Assembly (NCBI GenBank): GCA_008632985.1
Contig: QPGO01000299.1
Coordinates: forward strand, 1 to 64,000
Source: Psammoneis japonica
Taxonomy: Eukaryota
Length of the DNA stretch: 64,000 nucleotides
Reading direction: 5' to 3'
A program made the position numbers and the translations under genes. Positions 3,533 through 64,000 of this stretch are shown in pieces. The notes under the pieces were generated by a model. The model had not been told where the DNA came from and did no database searches. It saw only the letters and a list, made by a program, of their open reading frames with translations. How positions within the stretch are numbered: the first letter of the stretch is position 1; the number at the start of each line of letters is the position of its first letter.

Positions 3533-5899
3533 AGACGGTCAGCAGCTCGCGAAAACTGTGAATTTTTGCATGCATGCGCCGCCAGCATGGGCTGTCACTT
3601 GCTTTCAGCAGTCAGGTGCCCCTGCTAGACTATGACAATCCCAAACAGCCACAATCACAACCCCTCAATGTGCTGGCCACAACCCACATTGGGTTGGGGC
3701 AGTTGGCTCCACATTGCAAAACACATTGGTTCCAGCATGTGTTCTCCTGCCACTCAAACCCAAGTGATTGCTTCTTCAGCATGATGGCTCCCTCTCTCAA
3801 CACAGAGTGCAAACCTGTGCTTCATTTGTGCGTGCTTGTTTGCATGTGAAGTTTCCTGCCTTATTTTTTCTGCTTGTGTGCACAATCTTGTCACCTGGTG
3901 CAACCAACATTGGCAGCAACAACAAAAGCACACCAGCTCTGTCACACACTGCCAACTGCAAAGAGGCCTTTTTGCTCAAAAGCTCCAGGTTGTGACGGAA
4001 CACTGTTTGCTCATGCACCACACAAAAGTCACAATGCACATTTCTGCATGTTCTTTTTTGCAATGAATTTTCATGTGCCCCACTGTTTTGAGAAACCCAC
4101 AGATTTTCATTTTGGCCATTCTTTCTGAAAACAAAATTTGGTGGTTGCATTTTTTCACATGTGAAAGATGCAGCTGACTGAGCACACACTAGAAATGACA
4201 CACTTCAAGCATTTGTGCTCAAGTCAATCACAACATTTCCTCTTTTTTGTTGGCTGTTGTTGGTTGTTTGACAGTTTTGTTGCAGAGCTTGCAGGCAAAA
4301 TTCTGTGGGGGGCAATGTCACGTACATGCCAATGTCCCATCTGTGGCTGAAAGGCACGGGCCAGCACCCAGTGCCAAAGTGACAATGTTCCACTGACAGT
4401 CAAATTGCATTGCTCTTGGTTGAGAGTCATTTCAGGTTGAGAACCCATGCATCATGCATCTGCAGGAAAACACACTGTTGCTCTCTCTTTTTCCACTCCT
4501 GGAGCGACGGATCGTCACAAGAACACTTGTGGCTTGCCCCACCTCCTGGCAAACAGTGCACATGTGACAAAGAGAGCAAGTCTGCAGGCAGCCCAATCTG
4601 TGCCTCATTGGGTCATGTCCAATCCATTGACACTGCCAGCTCCCCTCAAAGAACAACTGTTTGCAGCTTTGAGGTGCTCATTTCATGCAAAAATGCTCTC
4701 CAACAAGTTGAGTTTACACCTCAGCAACTGGGCCCAAAGAAAAGGGTCCACATGTAGAAGGAAAATGCAAGCACAGGCAATGCCCAAGAACTTGAGAAAA
4801 CTGACAACACTCTGACAGCCTTGTGTGCCATGGCACAGAGAGACAGTTTTGACCCAGGCAAGAGTGCAAACTCAACAAGTTGTTTCAAAAAGCCTCTCCA
4901 GTGTCAATGTCAATGACCCCAACAACTCAAGCTCTGTGGGACACTTGTGATCTGGCTGTGTCCATCTCAACTGTGCAGCTTAATTGCTGCATGAGAAAAA
5001 CACATGCAATGTTTGACAGCCACTGACACAAAAGTTGTGAAGGCAAGCAACGGACAAGTGGTGCAAAACAATTTTTTGAGCATCCCCGGATGGAACCTGG
5101 GCAAACAACAGCATTTTCATGTTTTTCCCACACAACTGAAAAACCAACACTGTGTTCTCAAACCACTCATAAAAAGCAAACAAAACTCACCCAGCCCATG
5201 AGCCAGTCCAAAGTGGCCACCCCTTGCTCTTGTTTCATTTAATTGCTGCCACAATCAAAAATCCAAAGATCACTGATTTTGACAGGGAAGATGTGAACAA
5301 AGCAGTTGTTGTTTTCATCTGCAGTGGCCACATTTGAGGCTTGAGAGCTTGAGAAATAGAGCACCTTGTGTTCGTCCAACTTGAGAAAAAGAGCTGCAAG
5401 GTGAGAAGACACCAGCAAGACACCACAAAGATCTCAAACTTGTTGCACAACTCTGCTTCCCATCAGAGCGCCATGATCATCCCTTGGAAGCAGTTTGCTG
5501 TTTTGGTGCTCAACAGTTTGCCATTTTGGTGCTCAACTCTGCTGGCAAATTGTCCAGCTCCGGCATGTGTCCCATGCTCAGAGGTGCAGACACCTTTGTC
5601 AAAAGAGACACCCTCCAGTCCTCTTGAGTGAAATGCCTTGAAAGAAGAATCAACCAATGACAAGTCTCACAGAGCTTGTTCTTGCCATTGCCATCATTGC
5701 TCCTTTGTCAGCATTGCCACGAGGCAAAGATGATGTGAGCTCTGCTGTCTAACCTCTTTGGGAGCATCGCCACATGAAAATGCCATCCCACCTGGCCATT
5801 CTTTTCCATCATCAGCCATGACTCTTCCATGTGTGCACCCTTTCGTCACAAGTTTGGCTTCAACGGATTTCTCATGGCTGCTGAGAGCAATGTGTTGTC

Positions 5900-8146
5900 A
5901 GTGTTTGGGTTGACCAACCAAATGCATTTTGAAGGGAAGCCTTGTGTCATCATTGATGTGTCAATGTTGTCCAGATCCATCAAAGATGACACCCATGGAA
6001 CCCAACTTTTGCCAGCAGATGTGTCTTGTGCATCTGCAACCATCTCTCCTTTCTCAAGTGATGAGCCCACAACATTGAGTCTAAAGCAGACAACAACTTT
6101 TGTTGTGGCATTGTTGACAATTTGTTCGCAGTTCCCCAATTTGGAGACAAAGAGCACAATGATCCCTCTGGGCACTTTCCATTGCAGCCTTCAATGAGGA
6201 GCTCACATTGGCTCCACACCAAATGAGGAAGTTCCTTGGGAGTGCATCAAAAGCAGCTGACAAACTGCAAGAGAACTTTTGACATTGATGAAAAAGCAGT
6301 GTGTGCTGGTGTGCTTGCATCAGGAAATTGCAAACTTCTCTCAGAGCAAGCATCAGAGTACAATGACAACTTTCACTCCATTCCTGCCTGTTTGCACCAT
6401 TGCATCACAAATGAAGAAGAAACATTGCTTTGCCACATGCCCTCCTGGTGCCCAAGTTTAGATGGAGATGGTGCTCCAAGAGCACGGGCATCTGGTCTTT
6501 GGAAACTGATCCCAGTCCTTGGATTTGTGGTAAAACCAAACCTTCTTTGTGTCCCATCACAATGCCATGGTCATTCCCCCAAGTGTTTGTGCTGGCTCCA
6601 AGAGAGGCCACTTTGGCCTCTTCTCACTTTTGCAGCTTTGTTGATGCAGGAACACCCAGATCAGCATGACTGGACCAAGTGAAGCTGTCAAAGTAAAAAT
6701 TTTTTCTCCTGCCCACCACACCCTTTTCTTTTTTGTGTTTTGGGGCAGGTGCTCACACATCTCTTGGGAACCAAGGGAGCTGCTGAGGATGTGAGCAAGG
6801 AAAGCTGATTGGATGTTGTGCCTGGAGATCATTGAGAGGACTAGTGGAAATGCCCTCTCCACATGGGGATTTATTTTTACAACAAGCTTCCGCCACAATG
6901 GGCAATGCCATGGTGTTTCTTTGTTGCTGAGCCCAGAAAGCTTGGATGACCCCCCAGGTTGACTCCAGGGTCATGCCTTTGAGCCCTCACTGCTGTTCAA
7001 GCAGCAAGACCCTGTGGAGGGTGTGGCAAATTTTTTTGCTCACCCCCCCAGTGTGACTTGCATGCATCTGCCAACAAGTGCATTGAGTTGTGAGACTCTT
7101 AGTTGCATTTTTAGCTTGTTTGGTTTCCCAATGCTCTCTCAGTGGTTTGGTTGTTGTTTGGGATCAAGTTCAAGCCTGGTGTTCATGCACATCAGCAAAT
7201 TGGATCCACCTCCTGAGATCCAATCTGTCACTTGCAAATTGCTGCAGGTTTGCTGCAGGTTTTCCCTCCTCCTGCATGAGGCATGAAAACTTTTGCAAAA
7301 CCCACACTTCCGGCATCAAGTGATGTTCAAATACAAAGCTGAGCATTGTTTGGAAAACACCCATGGCCAAGAGTGTGATCTGCCAAATGGTCATGAAGAG
7401 GGTGGAGAACAGCCCCAGACAAGCTGCAGCATGATCTGGAAGAGAAGCTTCTGAAGGATTCAACTTCATAACTCCAAAACAACAGCTTTGGACAACTCCG
7501 CTTTCTGTGACAAGTTTGGCCAGTTGTCAGCCTGACCAGTGCTTTGCACTGGCACAGGTGACATGAAAGACAAACTTTGCCATGAGAAAGAAAGTTGGTT
7601 TGTGGAATGATGCCACCTCATCTTAGGGTTTGGCATGCCAGCTCAGAAGACAGCCACTGTTCTTGCTCTGACAACTCATTTGGCTGCTCCTCTGACAAGA
7701 AAGAAGCAACTCCTTGGGCCATCCAAAAGCATTGGTTTTAACATGGTGTCAAAAAATTTTGACAATGCTGTGAGTTCAAAAGAAAATTCAATGTGGTGGC
7801 ACAAGCTTTGCACAAACAAAGCAAAACAACCAAATCTAAATTTTGAGCACCATTGCTCCATTGACCCACACTTTAAGCACACCAGCAAGTGTGGCAGAAA
7901 CTTGCAAGGATTGGCCAAGGTTGGCACCACCTTGTGACAATGCCTGCCTGAGGAGGCAACAGGGAACAGTGAGACAACACATTGCAGGGTTTGGAGCAGC
8001 AGCTGCCTGTCATGCCACAATGGCCAAGGACAGTTGCACTTAGAAATTGGTTCAAGAGCAGCAACATGGCCACCAGGAGTGGAAAGATCACCACACAGAG
8101 CAGAGAGCTTGACAAGCTGGCAAGCAAGGAAGGGTTGTCTCCAAGA
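5900..8146 (+). mobile_element. Highly decayed retroelement remnant, possibly DIRS/Ngaro-like; continues after the nested insertion at about 13447-13900
   Basis: Only fragmentary motifs remain (FxQFP, LGFVV, DGDG, VPG...ALS, W-x-QKNFDN). The sequence at 13450-13875 is similar to the minus strand of 34840-34990, so it is a repeat family. Confidence 0.3.
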
Positions 8147-8598
8147 CTGCGTCTGGTGGGGCAACAATCTGAGATGCAAGCCAGCATGGCAAAATTTCCG
8201 TTGCTGCAGAAAGTCGGATTTGTCCTACATTGTTAATTGCCTGATGCTAACACTGCATGCCGGCGTGCAGACAACTGATGTTGTGTGTTAAACCAAGCTA
8301 TAATCTCACACGCTCATGCCTGAGTTGATTCATGCAACACATCACCTGCCACGTGTCGTTAACACCACGTGGTTCGTCCCACTCATTTTCATCTCACCTG
8401 TTTTTACAACACGAACAATGGCGCCCCCCTTTGCCATTGGAAATGATTGTCCCATGTGCGGCAAACGGCAAACGTTTTCTCCCAACTGGTCTTCAACACC
8501 ACCTGAGAACTTATCTTCCCTGCAAACTGTCCTTTTCTCAAAGCCTTCGTGACGTTTCTTCCCGTCAATCTGACGCCGCTCATGGTGAACATCCCCAA

Positions 8599-9906
8599 AT
8601 GAGAGAATCAGATGAACAAGTGGATGTTTCTGCCTCTTCTACCCTCGGCTCTCCTCCATTCGAATTTATCTCCGCAGGGCCTGACTCCAACGAATGGCAA
8701 AATCCACAAGGTTACACCCGACACAATCCCCGCCCGTTGCACTCCAATCGTGCACCTTCATCTGTGCCAGAGCTGTGTGGTTCCCACAACAATTCTGTTT
8801 TTCCCCACACCGATGATGTTTCAGACTGCCAGTTTCCAGACCCTGAAGAATTTGTTTCCGACACCGAGGGTTCTACCACCAATGTTGCAGATTCTGGCCC
8901 TTTTTCCACAGCACTCGATCAAGTTGGACACCTCTCCGCGGATGAGGACCTTGTTGTGCCCAAAGTGCACAACTGCAAAATGACATCCATGGTCCGCATG
9001 TTGAATTTGTGTTGCTCCAAGGGTGTCCCAATCAGTGCAACAGATGAACTGCTGAGAACTGTGCAGGAGGAATTCTCCAGTGGTGGGTTGTCCATCACCC
9101 AACAAATTCCCTCTTCTAGAACTTTCATGTCCAAGCTCAAGTTGATGTTGCCCAGCATTGTGGTCCCGGTGTTGCAGTGCGTTCCTCTCAAGTCTGTGTC
9201 CATTGTCAACCAATTCAAGAACGACCTGCCTCAGGAGCTCTCTCCCGGCATCCCTGTGTACGACTTTTCACTCCAACTGCAGGATCTGTTTGACGATCCC
9301 CTTTTTGCCGATCTTTCAAATTTTGATGTTTCTCCTGATTCACGTTGGTCTCAGGTGCTCTCCAGTGAACCCATGTTGGACAAGAATGGTGACTGGAAAC
9401 TTTGTGACAATGCTGAAATGAAGGACGGTGAAACTTGCAGTGACTGTTTTCGTGGCAGCAATCATCCCGCCGTTCCCGGTTCCTTTCATGTGTTTGTTTT
9501 GCATTGCACTGACAAAACTGGGAAAGGACAGGTCGCACCTCATTCGATGGAGCCATTTGTTTTCTCTACAACTCTCATCAAGTTATGTGCCCGCCGTCGT
9601 TTTGAAGCATGGCGTCCTCTCGGATTCGTTCCGAAACACACAGGTTGCAAAACAAAGAATCCCATTTTCAGGCTGAATGTCAGAAATTACCGTGCACATG
9701 TTGCCGAGAACATTTGTTGCTTCAGTGATCAAGTCCCATTGGAATGGGTGGTGGACGATAAATGTGGTGACAGTTGGAACACAACAACGACATGGCAGGA
9801 GAAAATGGATGTTTGTCACAGAGTGGGTTGTAACCCAGCGGAAGAAAACAGCGACACAGTTGCAAAGAGGTTGTGTGACATTGTGAACACATGCGCTGCA
9901 GTGTGA
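8599..9906 (+). pseudogene. Plavaka-like transposase, N-terminal part only, mutated
   Basis: Motifs PVYDFSLQLQDLFDDP, VLHCTDKTG (read as xxYxDKTG), SMEPFVFS and AWRPLGFVP are recalled as typical of Plavaka-type transposases. Recognisable similarity stops near 9720. The 524-codon ORF has only 4 Tyr. Confidence 0.65.
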
Positions 9907-11639
9907 AGAGCATCACCTGGGACTACAACAAAACACAAAAGAATTGTCCTCAGCAATGAAAATTGAATTGTACACAATCTCTGGCTTATTTTGGTGACAG
10001 TGTGGAAAATTGAACAAAAAATCAACCCTTTTTTGACGACAGTGTGTCGATTTATATCCCAATTATGTGAAATCAAATCAACAAGGTGAAAGATGAACAT
10101 TAAAATTTTGCACTCACTTTCAGCGACACATGACAAACAAATGGTGCGATTAGAATCCCCGGTGTGTGGCCCCACAAAAAAAAAAATTTCGATGCCGGTG
10201 ACTGTGCAGAATCGAAATGGCACTGCAGCTGCCACCCATCACAATCCATCAACAGAGAATCGGTGCTTTGATCGAACATGCTGTGTTCCAATTGCCAACA
10301 GCATGACACACTGGGTGGCCTGAGATGCCTTGCATTGACCAAAGGCATCCTGGAATGTGTGTTTTCTTACATGAGCTACAGGATGATGTTGAGGGTGCAA
10401 TTTGTTAACCAACTGTTGTTGCCACACGTGCTCAATGCTTTGAGAGAAGCAGTAAAGTGAGACAATGCATTGAGAATGTGGAGGCGCGACTTTGGCGATC
10501 CCAGGTGCACTTTAATGTGGAAACACTGGGTGGACAGGCCACTGCGTGAATTGTGAAGAGAGCACATTGAGAGAGAATTTCGGATGATGAGTTTGCATGA
10601 AAAACTGGATAAAAACAGAACTTGTGTCGACTGCAGAGCTTTCAATTATTGTGTCTCGGTGGGACACATGGATGGTGACATGCACCGCAGGTACAGCTTG
10701 CAACCATTTATGAAAGGGTGGATAAAAAAGGAAAAGATCCATTGCGACACGTGCATGGACAAAGTGACGTTGACGATGGATTTGGTGGACTTGGAATTGG
10801 AGACACCGGTGCACGTTTCGCAGCAGCTGCCTTGCGCCATTGTGTTGGCTTGCCACAAAGGAGACAAAGAATGCCACTGCCCAAATGTCATGTGTGCTCT
10901 GCTGCCTGTCAGAGATGGTGAGGTGAGAGTAAGAGGAGAAACCAGTGTGGATGTGATTCATCTGGATGAACACAACAATGGTGACAGAGCCCCCTGGCCT
11001 TTCGCAGAGGGACATTGCCCCCCACTGGTGAGCGGAGACACAGCAGTGTACGACAAAGCACTCTTGGGATTGAGGGTGTTCTGCACTGGAGTGCACACAG
11101 CCAGACATGGTCACAACGGTGGATTGTACGAAGTTGTGGAGCACTTGTACGAAACGCACAAGACGGCGAGAGAAGAAGCGGGAGTCAATGAGGAAAACTG
11201 AAGGGTGACAGCAAGGCTGGGGCGATGAGTGAGGGCAAAGAGATGAGCCTAATTGCCTGGGCCTAGATGGCATAAAATCGAACTGGTGCATGCCAAATCA
11301 AGGACATTTTTAATGGAACAGCAAGTTACAAACAATGTCAAAACGGTGCTCTGTTCGTTGTGGGCAAGAAGCTCAGGGCGGCTAAGAGCATGGTGACCCA
11401 GATGGCATGGCGATGTGTCGCATGGCAGATAAAAACGCAAAAAGAAGTGTTCGGACTACAGCCCTTGCTTCTATGAAAATCTGGCCAAAAAAATAAAATC
11501 AGCTGGCAATTTGAAAATTGTGGCACACAACAGTGGGGAGTGCCAATGTTCTTCGCGCGGATCATGAAATGCACAGTGAACGGATGATGCAAGGCTGACA
11601 ATGACAAAACATGCCATTCAAAAGGAATGTAAAATTCAT

Positions 11640-13011
11640 CAATTGATGTTTGACAATGAGTGCTTTGAAAATTTTGGCATGCAATAAAAGGGAGTTTTTA
11701 AAAAGGGCCAACGGGTGTGCTGGCGGGCGCACCAAGGACTGGGTTCGGTCCAGAGGGAACAATTTCGTTGACACAACACGTGGGAACAGGTTGGCAACAT
11801 GTCGGTACAAAATGATTCATCAGGTGCGTATGTTGCGGTGACAATGCACAAACGGGTTAGCCCACTCACGCTGCTTGTGTGTCCTTCATCATGGTTGGCA
11901 CCCATGACACAACAGATGCAGGATCCCACAATGTCAAGATTGCGGGAATGTCAGTGCCAGCTTGGAGGCGGCAAAGAAAAAGTTTATGGACGGCCAGACA
12001 ACCGACTGCATTACGACAGCAGTGTGCCCCAAGACAAAGTTCGTGATGCACGACAAGATTGAGTTGGCATTCGGGAGCAAAATGCAGAAAAAGGTTTGCA
12101 AACACCTCAACGTGGACGCGGGTGACTGTGCAGTTTGGTGGGAAGAGAACAAGGAAAAGGTGAGGAAAAGACTGAACAGAAGAAGAAACAACAGACAGGA
12201 GGCATTTAGAAAGAAGATGGTTGGCAAGTAAAATTTGGGTGGCAGGTGGATGAGATGGAGCAGTGTTCTCACCCATTGATTCTTGCTCGGAAACGGCTAA
12301 GTACGAGGGACTAGAAACTGTCAAAGACATCGAAAAGGGCAGGGCATCACCTGACACTCACTTCTGGTTCTTGGAGAATTGCTGCTCCCTTGCAGCAGGA
12401 ATGGAACACTTTAAAACAACAGACAACCAAGGTGTCAGCGATTGGCCAACAACAAGTGCGGAAGCTTTTGCCAGGCTCATGTGTGACAACTGCCACAACA
12501 CGGCCTTGTCAGTGGCAGAGATCGAAGAGCAATTCGAAGCCAACGGAGGGGCGCAGCCACTGACCCAACCCGTGGCCCCCAAGTGCATTTTCATGGGGAA
12601 AGGCGCAAAACGAAATCTCAAGGATGGAACCAGGATGGGATCGACAAGTACAACAAACTCTACGATGCTGTGGCAAAGGAGAGAACGGATTGCGGCAGAG
12701 TCGATGCACAGCACCTGCAGACAAAGAAATTGGAGAGCACTCGTGGCAAGAAAAGAAAGAAGAAAAAGAAGGACAGCATGAGGGGATGGGCTGCTCCGAA
12801 AACTGATTGGAGCGACAGCGAGGAGGAGGCCACTGAAAGGAACGACGAGCAAGGGAGCGAAGAGGAAGAGGAAGAGACTCCAGGAGCAGCAGCAACCGAC
12901 AGCAGCACTTCGACACAAATGGGTTCTCGACAAAGAGGAGTGAACAACAACACACAAAAGCGACTGAGGGTGCAACAAGGACGCGTGCGGAACGGCAGCG
13001 GCGTTTGCTAG
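11640..13011 (+). pseudogene. Accessory ORF of the Plavaka-like element (frameshifted, probably one intron)
   Basis: Fragments ...LNRRRNNRQEAFRKKM, PTTSAEAFARLMCDN and GWNQDGIDKYNKLYDAVAKER, followed by a K/E-rich tail. It is homologous to 51540-52750 in the second TIR element. Confidence 0.55.
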
Positions 13012-13573
13012 CATGTGGCAGAAAATGACGGTGGCAGCGATGTTAACCAGGAAATCCACTCAGTTCGGAAGGTGCAGCAACATAGAATGTGAAAAGCATC
13101 AAAGTGTTGCACTGCAAAATGATGGGAATGTTGTCCATGTGCTTGTTAGATTTAAAGCAAGGTTTGAAAGCAATGTGAATTGGGGGCTGTCACAAAGGTA
13201 AATTGTTGCACGGTGAAAAGTGGATGAGTGTTACACTTGAAAATGTCAGAAACATTCTCCGCATGGTCATTGCATTTAAATTTTCTTGTGACACATGACA
13301 AAAAAAATTAGACAAGAAGTGAGCTTTCTGACACAGTGTGTAAAAATTTTTAAATTAAATTTTAAAAAAGAAATTCAGACATGACGGGCAAGAATGTCGC
13401 ACAAGAGTTCGCGCACTGTGTCAGATTGTTGCCCCACCAGACGTGGGAGGCAAGAAATGGGAGGACTTGATGACATGACCAGTTGCAGCTCATCTCACAC
13501 AGAAACAACACCAGAGCTCTCACAGAAATGCCCATGTGTGCAGCAAATGGATGCCCACCAAATGATGTGAAAG

Positions 13574-13849
13574 TGACAGGATTTGAACAGGATTTAGGTG
13601 CACGCGAAATGTCGCACGCTGTTTAGTTTACCGCACACAGTTTTGTGTGCTTTAGTTCCGCGCGTTCACGCGCGATGTAGTTTGCTTTCGAGCCACAAGG
13701 CTCACAAGAACAATGACAGTAGCCCAACCACACTGACTTGCATGTCTTTCGGCTCCTGTGACGGTCTCTGAGTGGAGACTCATCTGCCATTTAGACAGCA
13801 GCAAGGAGTTATTGTTTGAATTCTTGCCATTTGCCTTCAATTTCTGTCA
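13574..13849 (+). mobile_element. Solo LTR (276 bp) of a Copia family, with a 5-bp TSD GAAAG
   Basis: It starts TGACAG and ends CTGTCA (terminal inverted repeat). GAAAG lies at 13569-13573 and 13850-13854. It is homologous to the LTRs at 35582 and 54317. Confidence 0.9.
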
Positions 13850-14299
13850 GAAAGGATGACTCATTTTCACACTCCTGTGTGCCCCAGTGGAGGCAGCACT
13901 TTTGCCACTTAGAGTGAAGGACTTGACAGGACAACAGGGAGACAAAAGATTGTAGAGGACAGATGGGTGTGGATGAGAGCAGTTCTGAGATTAGACTGTG
14001 TGGTCATCCCAGGGTTTTTCAGGAGGGTGCAGAGTTTACACTGAAACCTGTTGGAAATTACACTTGAATCGGCAGAAAATTACAAAAAGTCAACAGGCTT
14101 GCAAACCACAAGGCATCAATGCTGGCTGTTTTCCACCAGAGAATGTCACTCAACATGCTGCAATGAAGCTGTGCCATTGGCAGAGATGGCCAAAATGAGC
14201 TGACAGCAGCAAGACCTGGGGAAACACTGTCTGAGAAGGGTGACATCAGCACCAGAGGGTGCACAGAAACACATGCAGAGGCTGAGGGTGAGCAGCTGA

Positions 14300-16100
14300 C
14301 ATCAAAAAGTTTGTGCAAACAAAACAACACAGACATGTGGTGGACATTGTTCAAGAATGGAGTTGCGTGCTGGTTGAACTTGATTGTCAGGACAAGAGCA
14401 TCCTGGCTTGTGTTCCATGAATTTGGCAGCCATGAAGGAGATGTCATCTTGAAACCAAAGAGTGGAAGTGCACTTTGCAGGTTCTTGTTGTTCATGTGTT
14501 TTTCCCTTGAGGTTGTGCCAACCAGCAAAGCATTGAAGAGCAGTTTCCTGCAGAAACCAAAAGAGTGTGAGTTGAAGTTCCTGTCCATTTTCTGTGTGGT
14601 TCCAGGTCCCTTTCAAGAGAGTGATTCTCATTTGAGCTGTGAGCCCCAAAGTTTTGTAAATCAAATGAAGTCCCTCATCTTCTGCATGAAACAATTGGAA
14701 AACAAAGGCCTTTTTGGAGGCCATTGTGAAGCATTGCTGAGGGTTCCAACAAAGAGAAACATGCCCAAAATGCAGGCCACATGGGTGGGCCATCTGGACT
14801 TGTGTCTCATGACAAGCACACAGCACAAACACAGCACAAGGAGAGCTGGTGCACAACACTTTGCACCAGAAGAGCTGGTGGACAAAAATTGGCATGGAGC
14901 TGACCACACCTTGGGTGACCATGGTCCTTTGTGTGCCAAGCTGATGCTGTGTCCTCAGCCCAAAGACAAAGCATCCAGATGGTGTGGCTGATGCCATGGG
15001 CACCCTCCCAGAACAAGACCAGCTCAACAGTTTCCCAAGAATGTGGTCACTGTTCCACGGGGAAAAGTTGTCATCTCACCCAGTGCACCCCCTTGTGTCC
15101 AGAACCTGTGGAAACTGTTGGTGAGAATGATGCCGGATTGGGCCTCAGATCAAGATGGTTTCCAAGTGACACCAAGTTAATTTTCATTTCTCTGCTGACA
15201 GCCCCAGCAACTCCATTGCAAAAAGAGTGTTTGCTGTCATGATGTGATTCATTGCCACCCATGTTTCCATTCCTGTCCATGGGAAAGGCACAAGTAGAAT
15301 GACTGGGCAATGGCAAAGTGGGGCACTGGCAGCCCAACCTGGAGCCATGTGTTTTGCACAAAGAGATGGTTGCATCACCAACATCAACCTGAAGCTTGTC
15401 ATAGAGAGATGCATCTGCAAAATGTGCTTCGTTGCTGGTGCCAGAGACACCTTTGAGTCCTCAGATGCACCTGCAGTGATGTTTTCAGATGAAGGAGAGT
15501 CCATGCATCAAATGATGACAGGCATTGCTTTCAGGGGTGTTAAAAGCCCTCCCCAATGGGCCTGCAGACCTGGCAGACAACCCAGGAATCATTGCTCTTG
15601 TTTCTTCGTGCAAAAAAGAGGGCATGGGTGATGCATTGTTGACACCTTGCACAAATGAAGAAGGGCATTGTTGCACATTATTTTGGACAGCATGTTTGTT
15701 GGCACAGATCAGTGCACATTGGAACCCACCCACAACAATGATTTGACAAACTTGTTTCCAAGGCAAAGTGAAAGAATTCTTGTGACAAATTGCCAGCCCT
15801 TGCTGACATGGTTGCAGCCAAACAGAAGCAAAGCAACTCTCAGCAGAAACTGCTGAAAGGCATGCTTGGATTGTGCTTGTACAAAGCAATCACTTTTCCT
15901 CCCTGTCAACATGTGCAAGAGCTGCATCTTGTGGCTGAGAGAAGGAAGCAAACTGCTCTGACCTTGCAAAAGAATGCAAAGATGGTCAAGAAGTGCCCCC
16001 AAATCCATGAGCTGCAGAAGTTTGCCTGTCCTGAAAGATGTGTGTGTCCATTGCTCAAGAAATGTCAGAAACTCACATGTGTTGTTGCTCATTTTCAAAA
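14300..16100 (+). mobile_element. Decayed retroelement remnant, possibly a DIRS/Ngaro-type RT
   Basis: The fragment MMTGIAFRGVKSPPQW (about 15510-15560) resembles an RT FGG..SP motif. The rest is unreadable. Confidence 0.25.
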
Positions 16101-16597
16101 AGAGGAAAACACAATGTCATGATGGAGAAAAATTTGAGGGTGGGTGGGTGATGCAGAGTGATTTGTCTGGACAAGCCAACACAGGGGAAACAAAAAGAAG
16201 AGAGAGTTCATGTGCCACCACCAATGGCCATGACAAAAACCAATGCTTTGAAAAAAAAAGTGTGTCTCCACAACAAAAAAAGATGGCTGTGCATTGGAAA
16301 AACAGACAACCAGAGAGTGGGGCAGGTCACTCTGCATCAGAAGAGCACACAACAAGAGAGCAGGATGGGCAAAACAAAGGGTTGGGATTGAGCAAAGCAG
16401 TGCACAAGTTCATTGGCATCAGCGGCACAGGCAAAAAAAATCAATGACTTGGCCATTCTCTTCTCAGCAAGCTGTGCACTCTGATGCAAACATGGCAACA
16501 TCAGCTGGGACACTCTGCAATGCAAATGACACAACAGCAAGAGTCAGGGTGCTTGGCATTTTACAAAGCTTGGAGAAAATTTGAACATTTTCTTGCT

Positions 16598-16738
16598 GCA
16601 AACACTCTCAAAATGGGTTGAGAGCAGTTTTTGGCAAGAGAGTGAGTGCTCTGCATTTTGCAATGCTTGCAAATGTGAGCTTCATTTGCAACCACTCTTA
16701 AAATGGGTGCAGAGCAGTTTTTGGCAAGGGAATGTTCT
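16598..16738. repeat. Two diverged direct copies of a ~45-bp motif, ~90 bp apart
   Basis: cactctcaaaatgggttgagagcagtttttggcaag versus cactcttaaatgggtgcagagcagtttttggcaag. Confidence 0.7.
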
Positions 16739-21436: not shown

Positions 21437-21504
21437 AAAAATGGCAGAAGCCACAAGAGATGCAGAAGACAAAAATGGCAGAAGCCACAAAAGATGCAGA
21501 AGAC
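21437..21504. repeat. 34-bp tandem duplication
   Basis: aaaaatggcagaagccacaa(g/a)agatgcagaagac twice, with one mismatch. Confidence 0.9.
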
Positions 21505-51212: not shown

Positions 51213-51539
51213 GTTTTAAATGAGATGATCAAGCCAAACATCAAATTTGTCATTGACAATTATGTTCAACATTTGAACTGAATGTTTCATCCCTTGATTT
51301 GGAACAAATGCAACCAGGGATGTTGTTTTCAAAGAAAAACACGTAGATTCCTAATTGTGGTTGTTTTTGAAAGCAATGCCACCAGTTGTGAACACATGAC
51401 GAAGGGAAGCAGCATCACCTTTGGAGTGTTGAGGAAGAGGTTTGAAATTTTGCAATGGCAAACTTCCTCTGAGACCTGCTGCACTGCACAATCACGGCAA
51501 ACTGCAGGCCTTTGCCACAAGACATGCATTAAGTTGAGG

Positions 51540-52760
51540 GCAATGGCAAGGAATGAGAAAAAGGTGGAGAAGGATGGGGCAACAGCAGAGGCACCACCAA
51601 ATGGCCCAAGGCCAACAGCAGCATTGCAGCAGGCGGGAGCTGCAAGTGATCACCAATCACTGAAGAGAGAGGTGGAAGAGGTGGCACGGAGAGAGCCATT
51701 CCCAAAAGCGAAATTCCTCATGAAGGCAGACATGGCAAGTGGTGGCAAGGTGTTGCAGCCAATGCAGAAAAACACAGCAGATGGCAAGTTCACCAAGCGC
51801 GAATGGGCAGGATTGTGGGAGGACTGGGTGAAGAAAAGCTTTCTCAATGCAATCAATGCAAAAAGAAACACTGTGTGTCAGACGACAATGAAAAGTGCAA
51901 TGAGTGGCAAGCAAGGTGGAGGTGGGCATTTCCAAAATGGGCATGGGTGTGGTGCTGCTGATGAGAACCTGATTTTGCTGCAGTCGTTGTGACAAAAAAA
52001 CAAACCACAGAAATCTGTGGCAGGAAGAAACCGGCAAGGACCACCAAGAAAATCAAGAAGCAGAGAAAGGACGAAGCCGGCATTGAAGAAGAATTCGCAG
52101 CAACTTGGGAGGATGAGACAGTTGACACTGTTGTGTCTGAGAAGCAAAAGAACAGGGAGAGGTGCACGCATGGTTCTACAAAAACATCCTAAAATTCATG
52201 AAGAGCACTGCGATGTGGAGAAGGATGGTGGAGTCCAGCAGCACCAAGGCTGCAGATCTGGCTGTGGCAAGCGATGAGGCACTGGCCCTTTTGATGATGG
52301 AAAACCACTGGAAGGTTTGGGAGCACAAGACCATGCTGGAGGGAAAGGATGAAGGGAGCGATGAGGATAAACCAGCACTGTTGCACACAGACCCGTGGTG
52401 ACAGCGTGACTGGTGGAAAGATGAAGGAATGCTGCACTTCAACGCCCTGCTTTGGGAGGTAAAGGAAGACAGGGCAAGTGAGCAGGGTGTGCATTTCAAC
52501 ATGTGGCACACCGATGGAAAGAAAAAGGAGAGCAAAGGCAAAGGAAAAAAGGGAAGAAACACTAAAAAACCAGCGGATTCAGAGATGAGAATGCAAGCAA
52601 CAACAGAGCTGTCTAGTGACGATGAGGAGGACAACAATGCAGCAGAAAAACAAGGTGACAAAAAAGATTATGAGGAAGACAACAATGTCCAAGAAGACAG
52701 CGACAACAGCAGAGAAAGAAAAACTCCAGCACAGGCAGGTTGGAGATGTAAATCAATGGG
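51540..52760 (+). pseudogene. Accessory ORF homologous to 11640-13011
   Basis: AINAKRNTVCQTTMKS, VASDEALALLMMENHW and WKDEGMLHFNALLWEVKEDR parallel the motifs in the first TIR element. It has an acidic/basic tail. Confidence 0.55.
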
Positions 52761-54316
52761 GACCACAGCATTAACTCAGTGTTCATTGACATTCCATGTT
52801 AAAAAGGAAATGCTGTTAATCGCTGTTGGTTGAGGAAAGTGGCCTAAATTCATTGCACACAGCACCAAAAACACAAAAACCAGCACATGACACAAGAGTG
52901 ACAAACAATGTTGATTGTCAGGTTCTATGGTGAAGGAAAGCAGACACAAAATGGGAAGAGAGGGGGGTGTTTGAAAGTTAAAGTTGATTTCTCGTAGTTA
53001 AAAAGATGTCTCCATGGATGATTTAATTAACCATCACAGATTAAAAATCATTGCCAGCTGCACAACTAACAAGATTTGAAACTATAAAATTGTTGTCTGT
53101 AAAAGGAACAAAAATCACTGTGAAAAGGGATGAGTGGATCACCACATTGCGGCCTCTGATGGGTGACCATTGTGAATGTGTGGAAGTGCACATGGATGAC
53201 CCATGGCCTTCCCCATGAAAGATCCTTGGGCCTTCCTTAAAACTCTCATGGAGAAATGCAAGTTCAAGCTCAAAGGCACTGGACCATTGGAATTTCACCT
53301 TGGCTGCAACTTCTCTCGTGACTCTGATGGCACACTGTGCCTTGCTCCTCCCAAGCACATTGAGCACATGGGGTTGAAAAATTACAAATGCCTTTGTGCA
53401 GAGAAGCCTTGCAATGGTGTGCCATCCCCTTTTAAAAAGGGAAACCACCCCAAGCTTGACACCTCCAAACTGCTGCTCCCTGATGGCATTCATCAATTTC
53501 AGTCCTTGGTTGACTCTCTGCTGTGGGCTGTGTTGCTTGGTTGCATTGTCATCACTGTGGCCATCATGTCTCTCTCTGGCTTCCACATGCCACCCCATCA
53601 AGGCCCCTGGATTGTGCCAAACGTGTCTGCAGATGCTTGTCAAAGATGCAACATGGTGCCCTGTGCATGTGCACACTGAGGAACCCAACCATTTGGACCT
53701 CCCCAAGCCTGTGTGCAACTGGGCTCAAACCATGCATGGTGATGTGGAAGAATTTTTTCCTGAAGATGCACCCAAGCCTCTTGGCAAGTTTGTCACAATG
53801 ACCCACTGTGTTGATGTGAACTTGTTCTCCATAGCATGCTCACTTGATGCTCCATCACAGGCATCATTCATTTTCTTGACAAGTTTCTCGCTGATTGGTT
53901 CTCCAAGAAACAAGCCACAGTCAAGACTGCAACTTACAAATCTGAATTAGTTGCCACCAGGATGTGTGTTGAACAGATCATTGTTCTGTGCATCACATTG
54001 CATTGCCTTGGCATCCAAATCCATGACACATGTTAAATGTTCGGGGACAACAAGTCAGTTGTGGACAGTGCTGCCACTGTCCCGCACTCCAAGTTACACA
54101 AGCGACACATGGCCCTCTTGTTCCATCATGTGCTTGTTGCAATTGCCTCCAGTTTCCTTGAGTTCCACTTTGTGGAAGGTTTCTGCAACCCTGCTGACAT
54201 CCTCAGCAAACACTGGGGTTGCTCCCAGGTTTAGAACCTCCTCCATCCTCTCATGTTTTAGAACTTCAATCTGACTTTGAATCTGTCTCTGTGGACTCCT
54301 CAAGCAAACTGGGGAG

Positions 54317-54552
54317 TGACAGGATTTGAACAAGATTTTAGTTTGTCTTGCAAAATTGTGTGTGCTCTCAGTTCCACATGTGATGCATGATGCAGTTTGC
54401 TTTTGAGCCACTCAGCTTGCAAGAACAACAACAGCAGTGCCGACAACATGACACACATCTTTCAGCTCCTGCAACAGTGACTCATCTGCTGTTTAGACAG
54501 AGCAGCAAGGAGTTGTTGTTTTCTTCCACCCATTTTTTCTTCAATTTCTGTT
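54317..54552 (+). repeat. 3' LTR of the plus-strand Copia element
   Basis: It follows the PPT GGGGAG. It reads TGACAGGATTTGAACAAG...TTCAATTTCTGT, and its 3' end abuts the MITE-like copy. Confidence 0.85.
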
Positions 54553-54554
54553 GA

Positions 54555-58272: not shown

Positions 58273-59399
58273 GCATTTCAAATTTGTGACAAACACCTGT
58301 GTGCAAAATGCAAAAAAAAGGCAAAACAACAATGAACGAGAGCTTGTGGGCTCATGTTGTTCAATGTGGTGTTCATTGTGGACTTGTCATCCTGCCATTG
58401 CAAGAGATGACAGCCAAGCAATTGACTGGCTGCACAAGTTGGATGCCCAAAAAACTCTGCATTGTTGCTGCAATGCAGAATTCTGCTGATGAAGGGTCTG
58501 TCCTTTTTGAGTGAAGAAAGGCCCTCTTTGCAACACTGGGGATGGCATTCAGAACCGTAAATCTCACATGCAAGGTGCTGCAGTGTTGTCAATTGACAAC
58601 AGCAAAAAACAAAAGCAGCATTGAAGAGTAAAAAGCCCATCAATTTTGGAAACAAAATCAACTTTTACAGAGACACAAAAAAGGCAGAGGACAGCAGGTT
58701 TTTTCCCACTTGCAGCACTTTTTTGTGGCAAAAGCCATGGCAGCAGGCACACCAGTGCACAAAACTAAGTTGAACAGGTCATCCAGAGTTGTGTGAGCTG
58801 GGCAACATCACAGATGTGAATGTGAACATCACCGGAATGTGCCAACTGCTGTTGGCAGCAGCAGTGTTGTCCTTTGCAACTGCAGCGCCAGCAGCTGAAT
58901 TGCTGCCAACACTGCCAAACATTCTTGTGACACTTTTCTGTGGTTCTGTGCACTTTGGACCAAACAACAAGCAAATGGAGTGGGTGTCAGGTGGATTCCC
59001 AGTGTGTGTAGCTTCTTTGGGCACAGATGCAGCTGTTCTGTGTTGCAATTGCTGCCTCAACTGTGTCTTAGCCTCCCCTGGGGCATTGGCCGTGGCTTGA
59101 TCTGGCGGGTGTGAGGCTTTCGGCTGCGGCATCACCTCTGATCATCGTGCTTGCTTCGTGGACTTTGACACATTGGCCTTGTTTGGCAACCCATCAGTGG
59201 ATCTCCCAAAGGCTTTTTTCAGAAACATTTGGGCTTTGTCCAAACCTCACATCACAGCACATCTTCAGTCTCTTGGCCCAATGCTTCAGAGTCAATCTGT
59301 GTTGGAGCAGTCCATTCAGTTGAACTAACTTGATGCCCCAGATCATGCCCTGGCAGAATGATTGGATCGTGACATTGTGCAATTTTCTCTGGCAGCTGC

Positions 59400-61689
59400 C
59401 AAGAAATGCCATGTTCATTGTGAACCTGACCTGGTTGGTTGAGCTCACTGATCTGAGATGCCGGGCACACACATTCACTGGGTTGGTTTCCATGATGTGA
59501 ACCAGGTTGGATTGTGTCTCACAAATTTGCTCTGTTCGAGAACATCTTCATGTCTCCTTTCTCATTCCAGACACCTTGCAAAGGTGCCAAGAGGCCCTGT
59601 GCTCCACTCAAGCAGAATGCAAGAAAGTGGCAGCCGAGAGTGTTGGCTGTCGTGAATGTGAGATGTCCACAAGGATCACAGAATTCGATTTTGAAGGTGC
59701 CAAATCCTCCCGTGCCCAGGCCACCATCCTGCAAAATGTCAGGAAAGCCAAAGAAATGAAAAAATTGTTCAAAAAGATCAATGCATGCAATGCTCAATGG
59801 GATGATGGCATCAACAACGTGCAGGTTCCTCAAAATCCTGCTGTTCCCTCAAAGGAATGTCATGACTGGATGACCATCGATGCACCGGAAGACATCGCCA
59901 CTGCTCTTCATCAGAGAAACCAAAAACATTTTGGTCAAGCAAAAGGCACTCTACCAACTGAACCTCCTCCATCTGTGGATCCACGTTATGATGGTGACAC
60001 CACAATGGCAGAACTTATCTTGGATGGCAAGTGCAATGCAACCACTCTGAATGATGCTGCCGCATTGTTCATTCAACATTTGTGGCAGCAGTCTACGGTG
60101 TCAGTTTCTAATTTGTTGTCAGCATCCGACCTTGAAGGGAAAATCAGATGTTGGAAAGAATCCACTTCCACATCAATTTACTCCGGCCTTGACCTTGGTC
60201 ATTGGAAGGCAATGCATGCATCTCATAAATTTTCTGAGTCAGTTGCCTCTGACAGCACCCCCACAGCTGACAAGGATGCTTTGGATGAGGTCCAACGTTC
60301 TCTCATTCAGGTCCGGTTGAATCTGTTGAATTGTGCTCTCAGGTGGGGTTGCTCCTTTGACTGCTGGAAAGATGTTGTGAACATCATGATTTTCAAAGAA
60401 CTGGGAAACAACAAGATTTGTCACCTCTGTGTTGTGCACACACATGAAGCAGACTTCCAGTTAATCTCAAGTGTTAAGTGGCGTGCCTTGGCTCAAAACA
60501 TGGAGAAACGCAGGCTTTGTGATCCTGGCATCTACAGCACTCATCCCTTCTTAAATGCCAAAGATCCCATGCAACTTGAAGAAATGATGCTTGAGATCAG
60601 CAGAGCTTCCTGTAAGACTGCCGTGCACAGTGACGATGATTGCACATCTTGTCATGACCACAACATCCCTGCGTTGGTTGCAATTGAAAGCCAGAGCAAT
60701 GGAACACCAAGGGAAGTCACCCAAGTTGCCAGATCCATGATTCACAAGGCTTGTCATTGGCTGAAAACAGTGTTGGGTTTGCCTCGTCCTTCACACTCTC
60801 ACTTTGAAGAATTTCCAACATGTGGCTCAGGACAGGGCAGTGGCAACTTTCCATTCTGCTGGAACCAAATCTGCAACAGTCTGTTTGCAACATTCAATCA
60901 ACATGCACACGGTGCATTTTTTGAGACTCCAGATCACTCCTTGTCCCTCAGAGTGTTTGCATGTGGATGCATTGACAATGTGGGTGCTGGACCTAGCCTT
61001 TAAGATGCAGGAGGACAGTCAACTTTGGTGTGACCTTTTTGAATGCCACTGGCCATGAGTTGGAGCTTCCAAAATGTTCTTTTCACGCAATGGAGTGGAT
61101 GTTCACCAACAACAGCAAACCTTACCTTCGAGCATGCAATGATGAGATCAACATTGAAATTTCATTGGCAGATTGCATGACTGTGAGGTCCAGCAAACAA
61201 TTGTCAGCATGTTCTTCTCACAAGACACTTGGACACTGTAAAGCTCCAGCAGGAACCCAAAAGACTCAATTTTCTGCCCTCAAGAAAAAGAGTGACAATG
61301 TGGCTCTGTTTTTGTTTGATCATGTCCCCTTGACCGGCATGAGGCTTGGACTCATTGCTTTGCCTGCCATCTGTCTTTGATCACGTGTGTTCTGCCAAAC
61401 ACCCACTTCATGAGAAAAGAACTGCAAGAAGTCCAAAGGAAAGCCATTCGCAGCATCTTTGCAAAGTGCGGATGCAATTGCAACATGAAACGTGACATTC
61501 TATTTGATCTGCACTCATTGGGAGGTGGCGGTTTCAGGTCTTTGGATGTGGAGGAGGGAGTGGCACAGATTTTACAGTTTCTCCGACATTGACATGGCTT
61601 GGGGCAACCACAGGCTTTGTCCCAGATTGCGGCAGCATGGACTGCAGTGAGACAATGACTGGCACATGATGGAGGTGGTGCTCGAGTCA
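59400..61689 (+). mobile_element. Non-LTR retrotransposon (Ambal-like LINE) RT region, decayed
   Basis: The ORF at 59507-61003 and following fragments show WKESTSTS..SGLDLGHWKA, VNIMIFKELG, HTHEAD, DCTSCHDH (CYDR), CGSGQGSGN (YGxGQG), GCIDN (xxDD), TGHELELPKC and SLGGGGF. Confidence 0.8.
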
Positions 61690-64000
61690 TGCACATTCAC
61701 CAATCAAGAGATTTACGGACCAGCGGTGTCGGGACAATCTAACGGATGTCTAGGACAGATGACAATCGTGTGCTAAAGTGAGCAAAGGAGAGATCATCGG
61801 ATCTCTCCATGCTGTCTATGCTAGTCTGTCCGACACAAGGGAGTGCACTCCCCATCTTGGATGTCTGTCACCCTCCCCTGATGAGCAATGCAATGCTCAA
61901 CAAGAAAGAAAAAGATGATCCGAATAAAAAGAGAGGACCAGAACAGCAGGAATGAAGAGAAAGAACCAAAAGAAATGGCCAAGACTTGGTCCGTAAACAC
62001 GACAACAATCAACGACAATGTCCCATCCCCAAACGACAAGCGGCTGTCGGGAATGAGAGGCATCCAACCACAGTCAGTGCATCGGTCTTCGACAAAAAAT
62101 GTCAAAGGTAGTTCCCAATAAATCTTTTTGGATAAATTGAGTCGTGCACCAAAGGATAATTTCTTCAATCCACAAATAATCGACGGCAATGGGACATTCT
62201 GGCGAGTCACAATGTTGCCAAAAAATGTCATCAGAAGAGATGGGGCCAAAAAATGGAAATCCACCATGGCAGATGATGCGGCGAAAATGAAGCAATGGCA
62301 ATCCACCTGACAAACCAATGCTTCTACCACCATTTGTGTAGCCCCTGAAAAACATGTTGGGCAAACAAAATAGATCATAAAAGTCGCTCAACGTCGGAAG
62401 AACATTTTTTGATCAGGGGAGGGATTCCTGTGGCACAGAGGAAGCATGTCAGGCCATTGAGAACTCAATCTTTGACCAAGACACCTTGCTTGATGATCAT
62501 GTTTTGCACGCCGTGCGATGCTCACCTCACATCGGCAATGGTGGACAGGTCCGGAGTGCCGTGAAAAGTGCAATTAGATGCGACAACGGTCCTGACAACA
62601 GAGGAAAGAGATGAAATAGCGGGAGGTGACGAGACTCGGTGGCCCTCTTTCAGGGTCACCCTGCTTCCATTGGTCTTGATCGGACAAGAGAAGGAATGGC
62701 AGCATCGTACATCCGAAATTAATGACGGCCGAACCAAAAATCCGAATTCGAATCTCAACTTGACAACCAACAAAGTGCTGGCGGCATCCATGTGTAACAG
62801 ACCACGGCGGCGCATGGGTGGCAAGCAACTCGGGTGTAACCTTGACAACAGAGGATGGTCCATAACTGGGGTGAATGTGGCCATCTTTGTATGGAACAAT
62901 AGAATGGCCAGAAACAAAAAACTTTGGGGTCTTGAGCAGGCAGGAGCAGAGTTCGGCAGGAAGTGCCACTGATTTGGCAGGGATTGCAAGGGATCCCGCA
63001 TCAACATCTGTAGATTGCTCACCCACAGATTCCACAACAGACATGGTAGACTCGACATTCAAGGAATGAGCATCCATGGGGTCCATCCGAGTGTCCACAG
63101 TGAGTGCATCTGTAACATGACACACAACAGCAGTGTCAGTGTCACATGCAGCAGACCCAGTAACTGGGCACAACTTGGACTCAGCACATGCATGAGAACT
63201 CGAAGTGCTCTTCAATCCATTAGTCATGGCTTGCCCATGCTCGTTTGGACCAGGCAAATGAGTTGCTAAGGCCTTGGCAAAGTCTTCAGGAGCAGGACCT
63301 GTAGCAGCAACCGGTGGAGATACAGAACTTGAGGTTTGAGATGACTTTCCATGTGGAGCATCGGACATGTCGTCCCAACATGCAAAAGATGGAAAATCCG
63401 GACGGAAGAAGAGAAATGTGGTCTCAACATAGACCGTCATGGTGTCGTGACCGTCTGAAATTGCCTTGATCATAGCCTTCTGAAGATTGGTGAGGTTTAG
63501 ACGAATCGGAGAAGCTTCAGGAGCAGCTACAAAGAGAGGAGCTTTATCCATAATCGGACCAATCTGTGTAAGATCCTTAGTCAGTGTAGCCTTGGGGATG
63601 ATGAGGTCATGAACGATCTTGTGACGGAGAGTGGCAACAGCATGGCTCTTGAGGCCTTGAGGAGTAAATCCATCCAGAAGTTCTTTGGGAGCAGGCATCT
63701 CGTCGGAATTAAGGACGTTCAGGTAATGATGGGCATCTGGTGAGAGATGCTGGGGGTTGAATGCAACCAGTGTCGACTTGATCTTGGTCAAATCGAAGGC
63801 GTTTTGATTTTTGTTCACCATGGTTGCGCGGGAAAAAAAATCAAATTCCTGCGTAGAGCTCTGGTGTGTGTTCTACGGTGGTCGTTTGATCACAAATCAA
63901 GAGGTGAAAAAATAGCTGTGACAATGATGACGATTTCAACAAAGAAAAGGTCGCCAAAATCACACAACAGGCGTTGCAACAGAGGAGCACAGAGGAAGAA
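61690..64000 (-). mobile_element. Minus-strand LTR element carrying gag only (no pol in the window); relative of the 36290-43500 element; 5' LTR is beyond the window
   Basis: The putative 3' LTR at 61690-61847 is bounded by TGCAC...GTGCA and preceded on the minus strand by a PPT GGGGAG (61848-61853). Its core aaagtgag..ggagagatc resembles 43360-43395. The leader at 63843-63930 resembles 43107-43190. Confidence 0.65.
62574..63821 (-). CDS. Gag-like ORF (415 aa) of the LTR element
   Basis: ATG-initiated ORF. PEDFAKALATHLPGP is homologous to AEEFTKALAKHIPGP at about 42550-42505 in the nested Copia gag. Confidence 0.6.
   Translation of the reverse strand: MVNKNQNAFDLTKIKSTLVAFNPQHLSPDAHHYLNVLNSDEMPAPKELLDGFTPQGLKSHAVATLRHKIVHDLIIPKATLTKDLTQIGPIMDKAPLFVAAPEASPIRLNLTNLQKAMIKAISDGHDTMTVYVETTFLFFRPDFPSFACWDDMSDAPHGKSSQTSSSVSPPVAATGPAPEDFAKALATHLPGPNEHGQAMTNGLKSTSSSHACAESKLCPVTGSAACDTDTAVVCHVTDALTVDTRMDPMDAHSLNVESTMSVVESVGEQSTDVDAGSLAIPAKSVALPAELCSCLLKTPKFFVSGHSIVPYKDGHIHPSYGPSSVVKVTPELLATHAPPWSVTHGCRQHFVGCQVEIRIRIFGSAVINFGCTMLPFLLLSDQDQWKQGDPERGPPSLVTSRYFISFLCCQDRCRI

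Follow-up and report, generated by a model that had tools for sequence, protein, structure and literature searches.

We analyzed a window of 64,000 nucleotides from the diatom Psammoneis japonica (NCBI GenBank assembly GCA_008632985.1, contig QPGO01000299.1, positions 1 to 64,000, forward strand), in which host genes alternate with two long blocks of transposon-rich DNA nearly devoid of the dinucleotide TpA. All results come from this one 64-kb window. A DA1-like LIM gene (+ strand) and a protein kinase gene (- strand) occupy positions 1 to 3527, and a myosin V gene with its flanks (- strand) lies at 23411 to 29523. Myosin V, with an exon of 820 amino acids (aa), had a best match 77% identical, and its named relatives are the diatoms Bacillariaceae sp. 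and Thalassiosira exigua. The two stretches with these three host genes were used as internal controls. Their observed/expected dinucleotide ratios (o/e) were 0.71 for TpA and 0.97 for CpG in the first, and 0.56 and 0.92 in the second. The unique intergenic DNA, that is, the non-coding host flanks, was not depleted (TpA 0.97 and CpG 1.03).

Block 1 (3560 to 23400) contained 167 TpA (o/e 0.12), with CpG at 0.25, TG at 1.78, and CA at 1.72, and block 2 (29560 to 63250) contained 243 TpA (o/e 0.10), with CpG at 0.20, TG at 1.79, and CA at 1.81. The GC content was 0.47 in both blocks, unchanged in the depleted DNA. A preliminary description of this DNA had noted the near absence of TpA and the abundance of TG and CA over these blocks; the whole-block values bear this out (TpA 0.12 and 0.10, TG and CA about 1.8, host normal). 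In 1-kb bins over ca. 4 to 23 and 30 to 62 kb, TpA ranged from 0.00 to 0.32 and CpG from 0.02 to 0.68, TG and CA rose to about 1.4 to 2.5, and GC remained between 0.42 and 0.52. Block 1 was uneven, with TpA 0.09 and CpG 0.10 at 3560 to 8000, 0.23 and 0.58 at 8001 to 14000, and 0.07 and 0.06 at 14001 to 22000. Applying the thresholds for TpA-poor, CpA- and TpG-rich windows from the chlorarachniophyte alga Bigelowiella natans (see below), 50 of the 64 1-kb windows qualified, in runs of 8, 10, and 32. Among the 14 that failed, 11 were host or edge windows, and the others (12001, 62001, and 63001) were in or adjoining less-depleted parts.

Three of the four block edges were sharp, within ca. 150 bp: dense TpA ends at 3527 and 29523 and returns at 23411. 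The end of block 2 at 63250 in the preliminary description is approximate, the right edge being gradual (TpA 0.28 at 61830 to 63250 and 0.35 at 63251 to 64000); block 2 may continue past the right end of the window. On each of the two sharp left edges, the last dense TpA is followed by another ca. 50 to 130 bp in which some CpG survive (at 29561 to 29654 and 3577 to 3580), which places the TpA edge slightly outside the CpG edge.

Three classes of transposon were recognized inside the blocks, only through searches with relatives. One, on the + strand of block 2, is a Copia-type (RVT_2) polyprotein. Its 5' part, from gag to the middle of the reverse transcriptase (RT), lies at 43564 to 47200 (TpA 0.07 and CpG 0.13) and carries in-frame stops and frameshifts; its 3' part, from the RT catalytic motif on, lies at 53203 to 54258, with YVDD changed to HMDD at about 53186. 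The two parts are split by a nested insertion of ca. 6 kb (47201 to 53199; TpA 0.17 and CpG 0.34). A repeat resembling a long terminal repeat (LTR) is found at 35582 to 36466 (+), and its two ends match 54317 to 54551 and 43279 to 43457, which flank the Copia body. Further downstream, at 59071 to 61829 (+; TpA 0.13 and CpG 0.31), is a fragment of a non-LTR retrotransposon (long interspersed nuclear element [LINE]) with apurinic/apyrimidinic endonuclease and RT, truncated at both ends. It matches residues ca. 273 to 1200 of relatives of ca. 1950 aa with Exo_endo_phos and RVT_1 domains. In block 1, a fragment of a class II, Plavaka/KDZ-type DNA transposase (8563 to 9792, +) lies inside an open reading frame (ORF) of 525 aa at 8329 to 9906; it has five relatives, one of them with PF18759. 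This fragment is partly converted, with xYTDKTGKG read as HCTDKTGKG and the Tyr of an RNY motif kept. Block 2 also has a tandem array at 30219 to 31470 (+) with ca. 4 units of ca. 310 bp. The blocks also hold unclassified sequence.

The peptides that the preliminary description had quoted as altered transposon motifs were all present on the + strand (GHKK at 46808, KALCGL at 47102, HCECVEVHMDD at 53168, HTHEAD at 60437, and CGSGQG at 60821). Its counts of Tyr in three long ORFs (4/524, 2/453, and 3/498) were likewise matched by ours, made from stop to stop (4/525, 2/464, and 3/500). These ORFs have 0.4 to 0.8% Tyr, compared with medians of 4.1% in the set of Copia relatives and 3.5% in the LINE set.

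We polarized the changes of the Copia and LINE elements against their relatives. For Copia, we used 37 full-length relatives (1700 aa or longer) out of 120 listed, and retained columns covered by 15 or more relatives that agreed to 80% or better (577 columns); for LINE, 150 relatives gave 168 columns, the corresponding cut-offs being 30 relatives and 70%. Only 2 of the 32 conserved Tyr in the two elements were kept, 15 having become Cys (TGY) and 13 His (CAY). At the positions of these Cys and His, the intact relatives have Tyr, so that the loss of Tyr described from family motifs holds against real relatives. In Copia, 2 of 24 Tyr were kept (13 TGY Cys, 7 CAY His, 1 Gln, and 1 Phe), together with all 23 His and all 4 Cys. 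Arg followed the parallel pattern at CpG, being kept at 8 of 39 positions (15 His, 7 Cys, 2 Gln, 2 Trp, 2 stops, 1 Lys, 1 Thr, and 1 Leu). Other residues were kept at 52 to 100%, and their chief changes, E>K (11), D>N (8), and V>I (8), are G>A at the first base of the codon, the change expected where a CpG straddles two codons. The LINE fragment kept none of its 8 Tyr (6 His and 2 Cys) and 6 of its 12 Arg, and the Arg kept in the two elements together were 14 of 51. Run through the same pipeline, the host myosin kept 18 of 18 Tyr and 55 of 59 Arg (Fisher p 1e-11 for Tyr and 2e-13 for Arg).

The conversion was specific for its dinucleotide. In Copia, A>G at second codon positions without a preceding T (K>R, N>S, Q>R, H>R, D>G, and E>G) was seen at 4 of 160 sites, against 13 of 24 for Tyr>Cys, placing A>G at TpA at least 20-fold above A>G elsewhere. 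Both strands were hit: the polarized sites split into 15 TGY and 13 CAY for Tyr and into 12 TGN and 21 CAN for Arg, neither split being significant. Once polarized, the A:T>G:C change at TpA is thus found on both strands, far above other transitions and confined to the transposon blocks, as the preliminary description had proposed. The family is not intrinsically TA-poor: among 142 related LINE loci on metagenome contigs, the best 80 had TpA o/e of 0.53 to 0.85, CpG of 0.45 to 1.12, and normal composition; the scan demanded an intact RN[QR]xHFGQA motif and, with the choice of the best loci, was biased against hypermutated copies, so that it says little on the spread of the phenomenon.

Comparison of paralogs in the window indicated when the changes took place. 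After dropping 3 overlapping sub-alignments of 13, the 10 non-redundant pairs offered 2442 columns with 286 transition mismatches. Adjacent double transitions were overwhelmingly of the {CA,TG} class (61), the other classes amounting to 9, 5, 4, 3, 3, and 1, with {CG,TA} at 0. Such a difference implies that an ancestral TA or CG became TG in one copy and CA in the other, that is, that conversion was independent in each copy, happened after duplication, and was able to hit either strand. Coding the sequences as purines and pyrimidines (R/Y) raised the identity between 36290 to 36466 and 43279 to 43457 from 76.7 to 97.2%, and that of other pairs from 72.9 to 88.7%, 79.9 to 92.0%, and 79.8 to 89.9%, so transitions dominate the divergence of the paralogs. 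Between the copies of the tandem array, identity is 73% in four letters and rises to 89% in R/Y coding, their divergence consisting almost entirely of transitions, and its main alignment alone had 31 {TG,CA} double differences. The window contains few repeats overall, and no further large ones appeared in its R/Y-coded self-comparison above the reversed-sequence control (maximum 86 bits).

Depletion also followed age. The nested, and hence younger, insertion is less depleted than the Copia element that it interrupts. Across the sub-blocks, the losses of TpA and CpG co-vary, with TpA dropping first and then reaching a floor at about 0.07. Taken together, the hits on both strands, the double changes after duplication, and the age gradient rule out that a sense RNA was edited prior to integration, and they indicate a gradual accumulation in place.

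The two losses obeyed different rules. Survival of TpA depended strongly and symmetrically on its flanks, with o/e of at most 0.01 for ATAT, GTAT, and ATAC, 0.08 for GTAC, 0.10 for CTAG, and 0.29 for TTAA. A half-site model applied to each strand gave survival of 0.13 for T-A-T, 0.28 for T-A-C, 0.32 for T-A-G, and 0.58 for T-A-A, and lowered the chi-square from 224 with a flat model (15 degrees of freedom [df]) to 41 (12 df). The loss of CpG, in contrast, showed no dependence on its flanks (chi-square 16.5 on 15 df), TCGN (0.17 to 0.24) behaving like any other NCGN. The losses were also partly uncoupled: at 8 to 14 kb TpA was reduced to 0.23 and CpG only to 0.58, and in the LINE all 8 conserved Tyr were converted while 4 CGN Arg codons survived. 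That TpA loss follows a flank rule and CpG loss does not speaks for two processes, both restricted to a single domain.

We consider it probable that the blocks are silenced, transposon-rich diatom DNA that was rewritten in place, at the DNA level, by two context-specific transition processes. One would be CpG>TpG/CpA, independent of flanks, as expected from deamination of 5-methylcytosine (5mC). As CpG o/e of 0.06 to 0.13 is very low, this loss may also have an active component. The other would be TpA>TpG/CpA, equivalent to A>G at 5'-TA-3' on either strand, with a 3'-neighbor preference of T > C ~ G > A and carried near to saturation. Both would end at common domain edges and leave more changes the older the insertion. 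For the TpA process, we tentatively favor an enzyme recruited to silenced chromatin, which would flip adenine out of duplex DNA and deaminate it to hypoxanthine, the hypoxanthine then being copied as G; this mechanism is one that we infer and put at somewhat short of even chances. The loss of TpA makes TAA and TAG vanish (0.1 to 0.2 of expectation in the blocks, with TGA almost the sole stop), so that dead elements retain long open frames, the opposite of the outcome of fungal repeat-induced point mutation (RIP).

Several observations weigh against this interpretation. Only two elements could be polarized, the Plavaka-type fragment having just its five relatives, and the methylation behind the CpG loss is a state that we infer. 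The half-site model still misfits the TpA data (chi-square 41 on 12 df), and the surviving TpA may partly be newly created sites and not resistant ones. Read support for the assembled bases is weak and indirect: the contigs of one public DNA run contain 0.96 of 1038 sampled 31-mers of positions 20001 to 30000, a stretch that is ca. 38% depleted block, and this run may be the assembly's own source. The one characterized DNA-editing ADAT2, amphioxus BjADAT2, acts in contexts unlike those found here (see below). Finally, strong base-composition skews switch near 43 kb, the + strand being G+T-rich at 40001 to 43000 (keto skew +0.2) and C-rich at 44001 to 46000 (GC skew -0.25); these skews may be ancestral element composition or strand-biased mutation. 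A strand asymmetry seen in the o/e values was rejected as a normalization effect of base-composition skew, the polarized sites having no significant strand bias.

The chief rival to adenine deamination is a modified thymine at TpA leading to T>C, in which a TET/JBP-type dioxygenase would make 5-hydroxymethyluracil (5hmU) or a base-J-like derivative that mispairs with G or enters an error-prone glycosylase pathway. TpA is its own reverse complement, and purine and pyrimidine targets are therefore indistinguishable in these data; the restriction to domains fits a chromatin mark, and 5hmU in dinoflagellates is enriched at TpA and TpC. Against it, 5hmU paired with A is only weakly mutagenic, and we regard this route as unlikely. 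Slightly less probable still is that a single deaminase of dual specificity, of the ADAT2 type and acting on A and C in DNA, caused both losses. The shared edges and the co-variation of the losses (Spearman 0.51 over 51 1-kb bins) would suit it, and amphioxus ADAT2 is reported to deaminate both bases in DNA (PMC10354150). However, the flank dependence is strong for TpA and absent for CpG, TCG is not preferentially lost as the reported preference of BjADAT2 would predict, and the losses are uncoupled both in the LINE (Tyr 0/8 with 4 CGN Arg surviving) and in two of its relatives, P0290 and P0374 (4 to 5 columns each). Error-prone patch synthesis of the DNA polymerase eta (pol-eta) type at WA (W, A or T), recruited to repeats, was another candidate of the preliminary description. 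TA does fall under WA, and the error most typical of pol-eta is A>G, but AA was unaffected (o/e 1.20 to 1.23 in the blocks versus 1.09 to 1.15 in the host), the polarized AA sites of Copia changed in 1 of 30 cases for K>R and 1 of 14 for N>S versus 13 of 24 for Tyr>Cys, and an almost complete loss of TA that leaves hardly any transversion signature is unlike patch synthesis. We therefore disfavor pol-eta as very improbable.

An ADAR-like A-to-I editing of retrotransposon transcripts before reverse transcription deserves almost no weight. ADAR favors a 5' U, a preference also cited in the discussion of the B. natans preprint, and two of the affected elements are retrotransposons; yet a single element has the changes on its two strands in about equal measure (15 TGY and 13 CAY for Tyr), the conversion also reached a DNA transposon, a tandem array, and non-coding DNA, the {TG,CA} doubles between tandem units and between LTR-like pairs place it after duplication, and depletion ends at the edges of the blocks and not at those of the elements. 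Moreover, ADAR disfavors a 3' U, whereas the best context here has a 3' T. Least credible of all is that low TA and CG reflect an intrinsic or selected avoidance of these words by the families and not mutation, given that the relatives are normal in TpA, CpG, and Tyr, and that the catalytic motifs are destroyed (YVDD>HMDD) in a Copia element with stops and frameshifts. We also weighed an artefact, in which modified bases in transposon DNA were miscalled and CG and TA written as TG or CA. The runs in which the 31-mers occur all come from one sample, perhaps the assembly's own source, which would allow for this; on the other side, noisy reads would not yield 0.96 of the 31-mers in run contigs, miscalls on opposite strands would conflict, leaving or creating TA and not removing >90% of it, and older insertions are more depleted. 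Database proteins from other sources likewise have Cys or His in place of Tyr: P0290, a LINE relative from an ENA metagenome, carries the motifs SCCDRI, FHQHC, and PICGAGQG, in which relatives have Tyr, and P0407, a Plavaka-type relative from Logan, reads HTDKTGKG. When the 116 LINE relatives were scored all against all, P0290 had kept 0 of 4 Tyr and 8 of 9 Arg, and P0374 1 of 5 and 6 of 8, small numbers that give no more than hints. These three proteins suggest TpA-specific conversion without CpG loss in other data sets. As the same signature is also reported to arise de novo in Illumina-sequenced B. natans lines, we judge an artefact to be very unlikely, on a par with pol-eta.

The preliminary description knew of no pathway for such a change. 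In fact, TpA>TpG/CpA hypermutation has been observed directly in mutation-accumulation lines of B. natans (2026 preprint, bioRxiv 10.64898/2026.01.13.699255, Mettrop et al.), where 231 of 302 nuclear single-nucleotide mutations fell in a single-copy, silent insertion of a nucleocytoplasmic large DNA virus (NCLDV; 186 kb) and in a virophage insertion (25 kb). Of these 231, 230 were A>G or T>C, all those at TpA; the rate was ca. 6e-7 per site per generation, ca. 1000-fold above background, and the activity was present in some lines only. The same preprint reports 124 clusters of TpA-poor, CpA- and TpG-rich windows in the genome, and an enrichment of RT, endonuclease-RT, and DDE domains among low-TpA coding sequences. 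It leaves the mechanism open and proposes an ADAT2 homologue, and the word "diatom" appears nowhere in it. In the literature searched, in which subscription journals were thinly covered, this preprint was the only report of targeted A:T>G:C hypermutation of DNA, and none came up of TpA hypermutation in a diatom or another stramenopile.

The P. japonica blocks share with B. natans the A>G/T>C change at TpA that yields TpG and CpA, the targeting of foreign or mobile DNA with host genes spared, and the long-term footprint of clustered TpA-poor, CpA- and TpG-rich 1-kb windows. They differ in lineage (a stramenopile here and a rhizarian there), in extent (near saturation, with TpA o/e of 0.07 to 0.12, compared with a reported Rho of 0.45 in the NCLDV region), and in targets, three transposon classes here versus giant-virus and virophage insertions. 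The co-extensive CpG loss, the 3'-neighbor rule, and the sharp edges have no counterpart in the abstract, first Results part, candidate-enzyme section, and Discussion of the preprint. With fungal RIP the blocks have in common a transition-only, dinucleotide-specific inactivation of mobile elements, in place and at the DNA level, with the neighboring genes intact. RIP changes C to T, chiefly at CpA, and generates both TpA and stop codons. In these blocks, on the contrary, TpA is removed, CA is enriched to 1.7 to 1.8, TAA and TAG are lost, and frames stay open. The CpG half resembles 5mC deamination in methylated transposons in being flank-independent, confined to transposons, and dependent on age, and diatom transposons are reported to be CpG-methylated via DNMT5 (Hoguin et al. 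2023, PMC9998398); the removal of TpA is something that 5mC deamination cannot do.

As for the deaminase, BjADAT2 is reported to convert A to I and C to U in DNA, preferring 5'-GAA-3', 5'-TCG-3', and hairpin or single-stranded DNA (PMC10354150). The A>I chemistry proposed here is therefore one demonstrated in DNA for a eukaryotic enzyme, while the reported contexts differ from the order T-A-T > T-A-S (S, C or G) > T-A-A, together with any CpG, on both chromosomal strands. A TadA/ADAT-like deaminase, as put forward in the preliminary description, is thus possible in its chemistry and at odds with the characterized enzyme in its preferences; an ADAT2 paralog of different specificity could possibly reconcile the two. 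The preliminary interpretation as a whole is partly supported. Three of the four outcomes that it named as refuting it (Cys or His already encoded by intact copies, no excess of A>G at TpA, and equal depletion of unique DNA) were looked for and did not occur, and the fourth, disagreement with raw reads, was addressed indirectly through the run contigs. Its terms repeat-restricted and RIP-like find no support in a single window, which yields no copy number, and the B. natans target is single-copy.

The TpA>TpG/CpA signature is not categorically new, since it has already been described in one rhizarian alga, and our results extend a barely known kind of process to a different lineage. What is new here is the near saturation, the three transposon classes, the separable CpG decay, the 3'-neighbor rule, the sharp edges, and the open frames. 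The process is not peculiar to one alga and strikes ordinary transposons besides viruses, alongside the decay of methylated CpG. A broader proposal, which we put at somewhat short of even odds, is that a dedicated DNA A:T>G:C editing system is common to the SAR supergroup (Rhizaria and Stramenopiles), and perhaps wider. It would read a mark of silent chromatin, convert TpA on either strand of duplex DNA in the order T-A-T > T-A-S > T-A-A, and, together with 5mC decay, wipe out transposons and viruses that have integrated while generating no stop codons; the enzyme behind it would be an uncharacterized natural editor of adenine (or thymine) in double-stranded DNA. Candidates are constrained by action in place on both chromosomal strands, the 3'-neighbor rule, the sharp domain edges, and independence from the CpG process. 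Diatoms include genetically tractable models, which could make a hunt for the enzyme feasible if those species share the signature. A natural A:T editor of duplex DNA, if real, would be of interest to genome-defense biology and to base-editing technology.

There are also consequences for annotation, because such blocks escape Pfam and repeat detection and gene finders would over-call spurious long ORFs. A Pfam search of the 245 ORFs of at least 90 aa in the blocks found no RT or integrase, and its few weak matches were all below the gathering cut-offs. Most long ORFs on both strands of the blocks exist only by virtue of the scarcity of TAA and TAG. Many overlapping ORFs of 200 to 280 aa without a family match were seen on both strands, such as 10512 to 11297 (-) over 10557 to 11201 (+). 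The nested insertion contains an ORF of 464 aa at 49533 to 50927 (+) with 2 Tyr, 27 Cys, and 19 His, for which neither Pfam nor the ESM Atlas gave a usable match, leaving its family unrecognizable. Pfam and the ESM Atlas likewise had no usable match for an ORF of 432 aa at 62577 to 63872 (-). It lies across the gradual right edge (TpA 0.28 to 0.35 and CpG 0.59 to 0.69), has 5 Tyr, 13 Cys, and 20 His, and could be a partly converted element or gene. Among the host genes, the DA1-like protein at 2 to 1273 (+), of a family best known from plants, has LIM and DA1 peptidase domains and is encoded in this diatom by one long exon.

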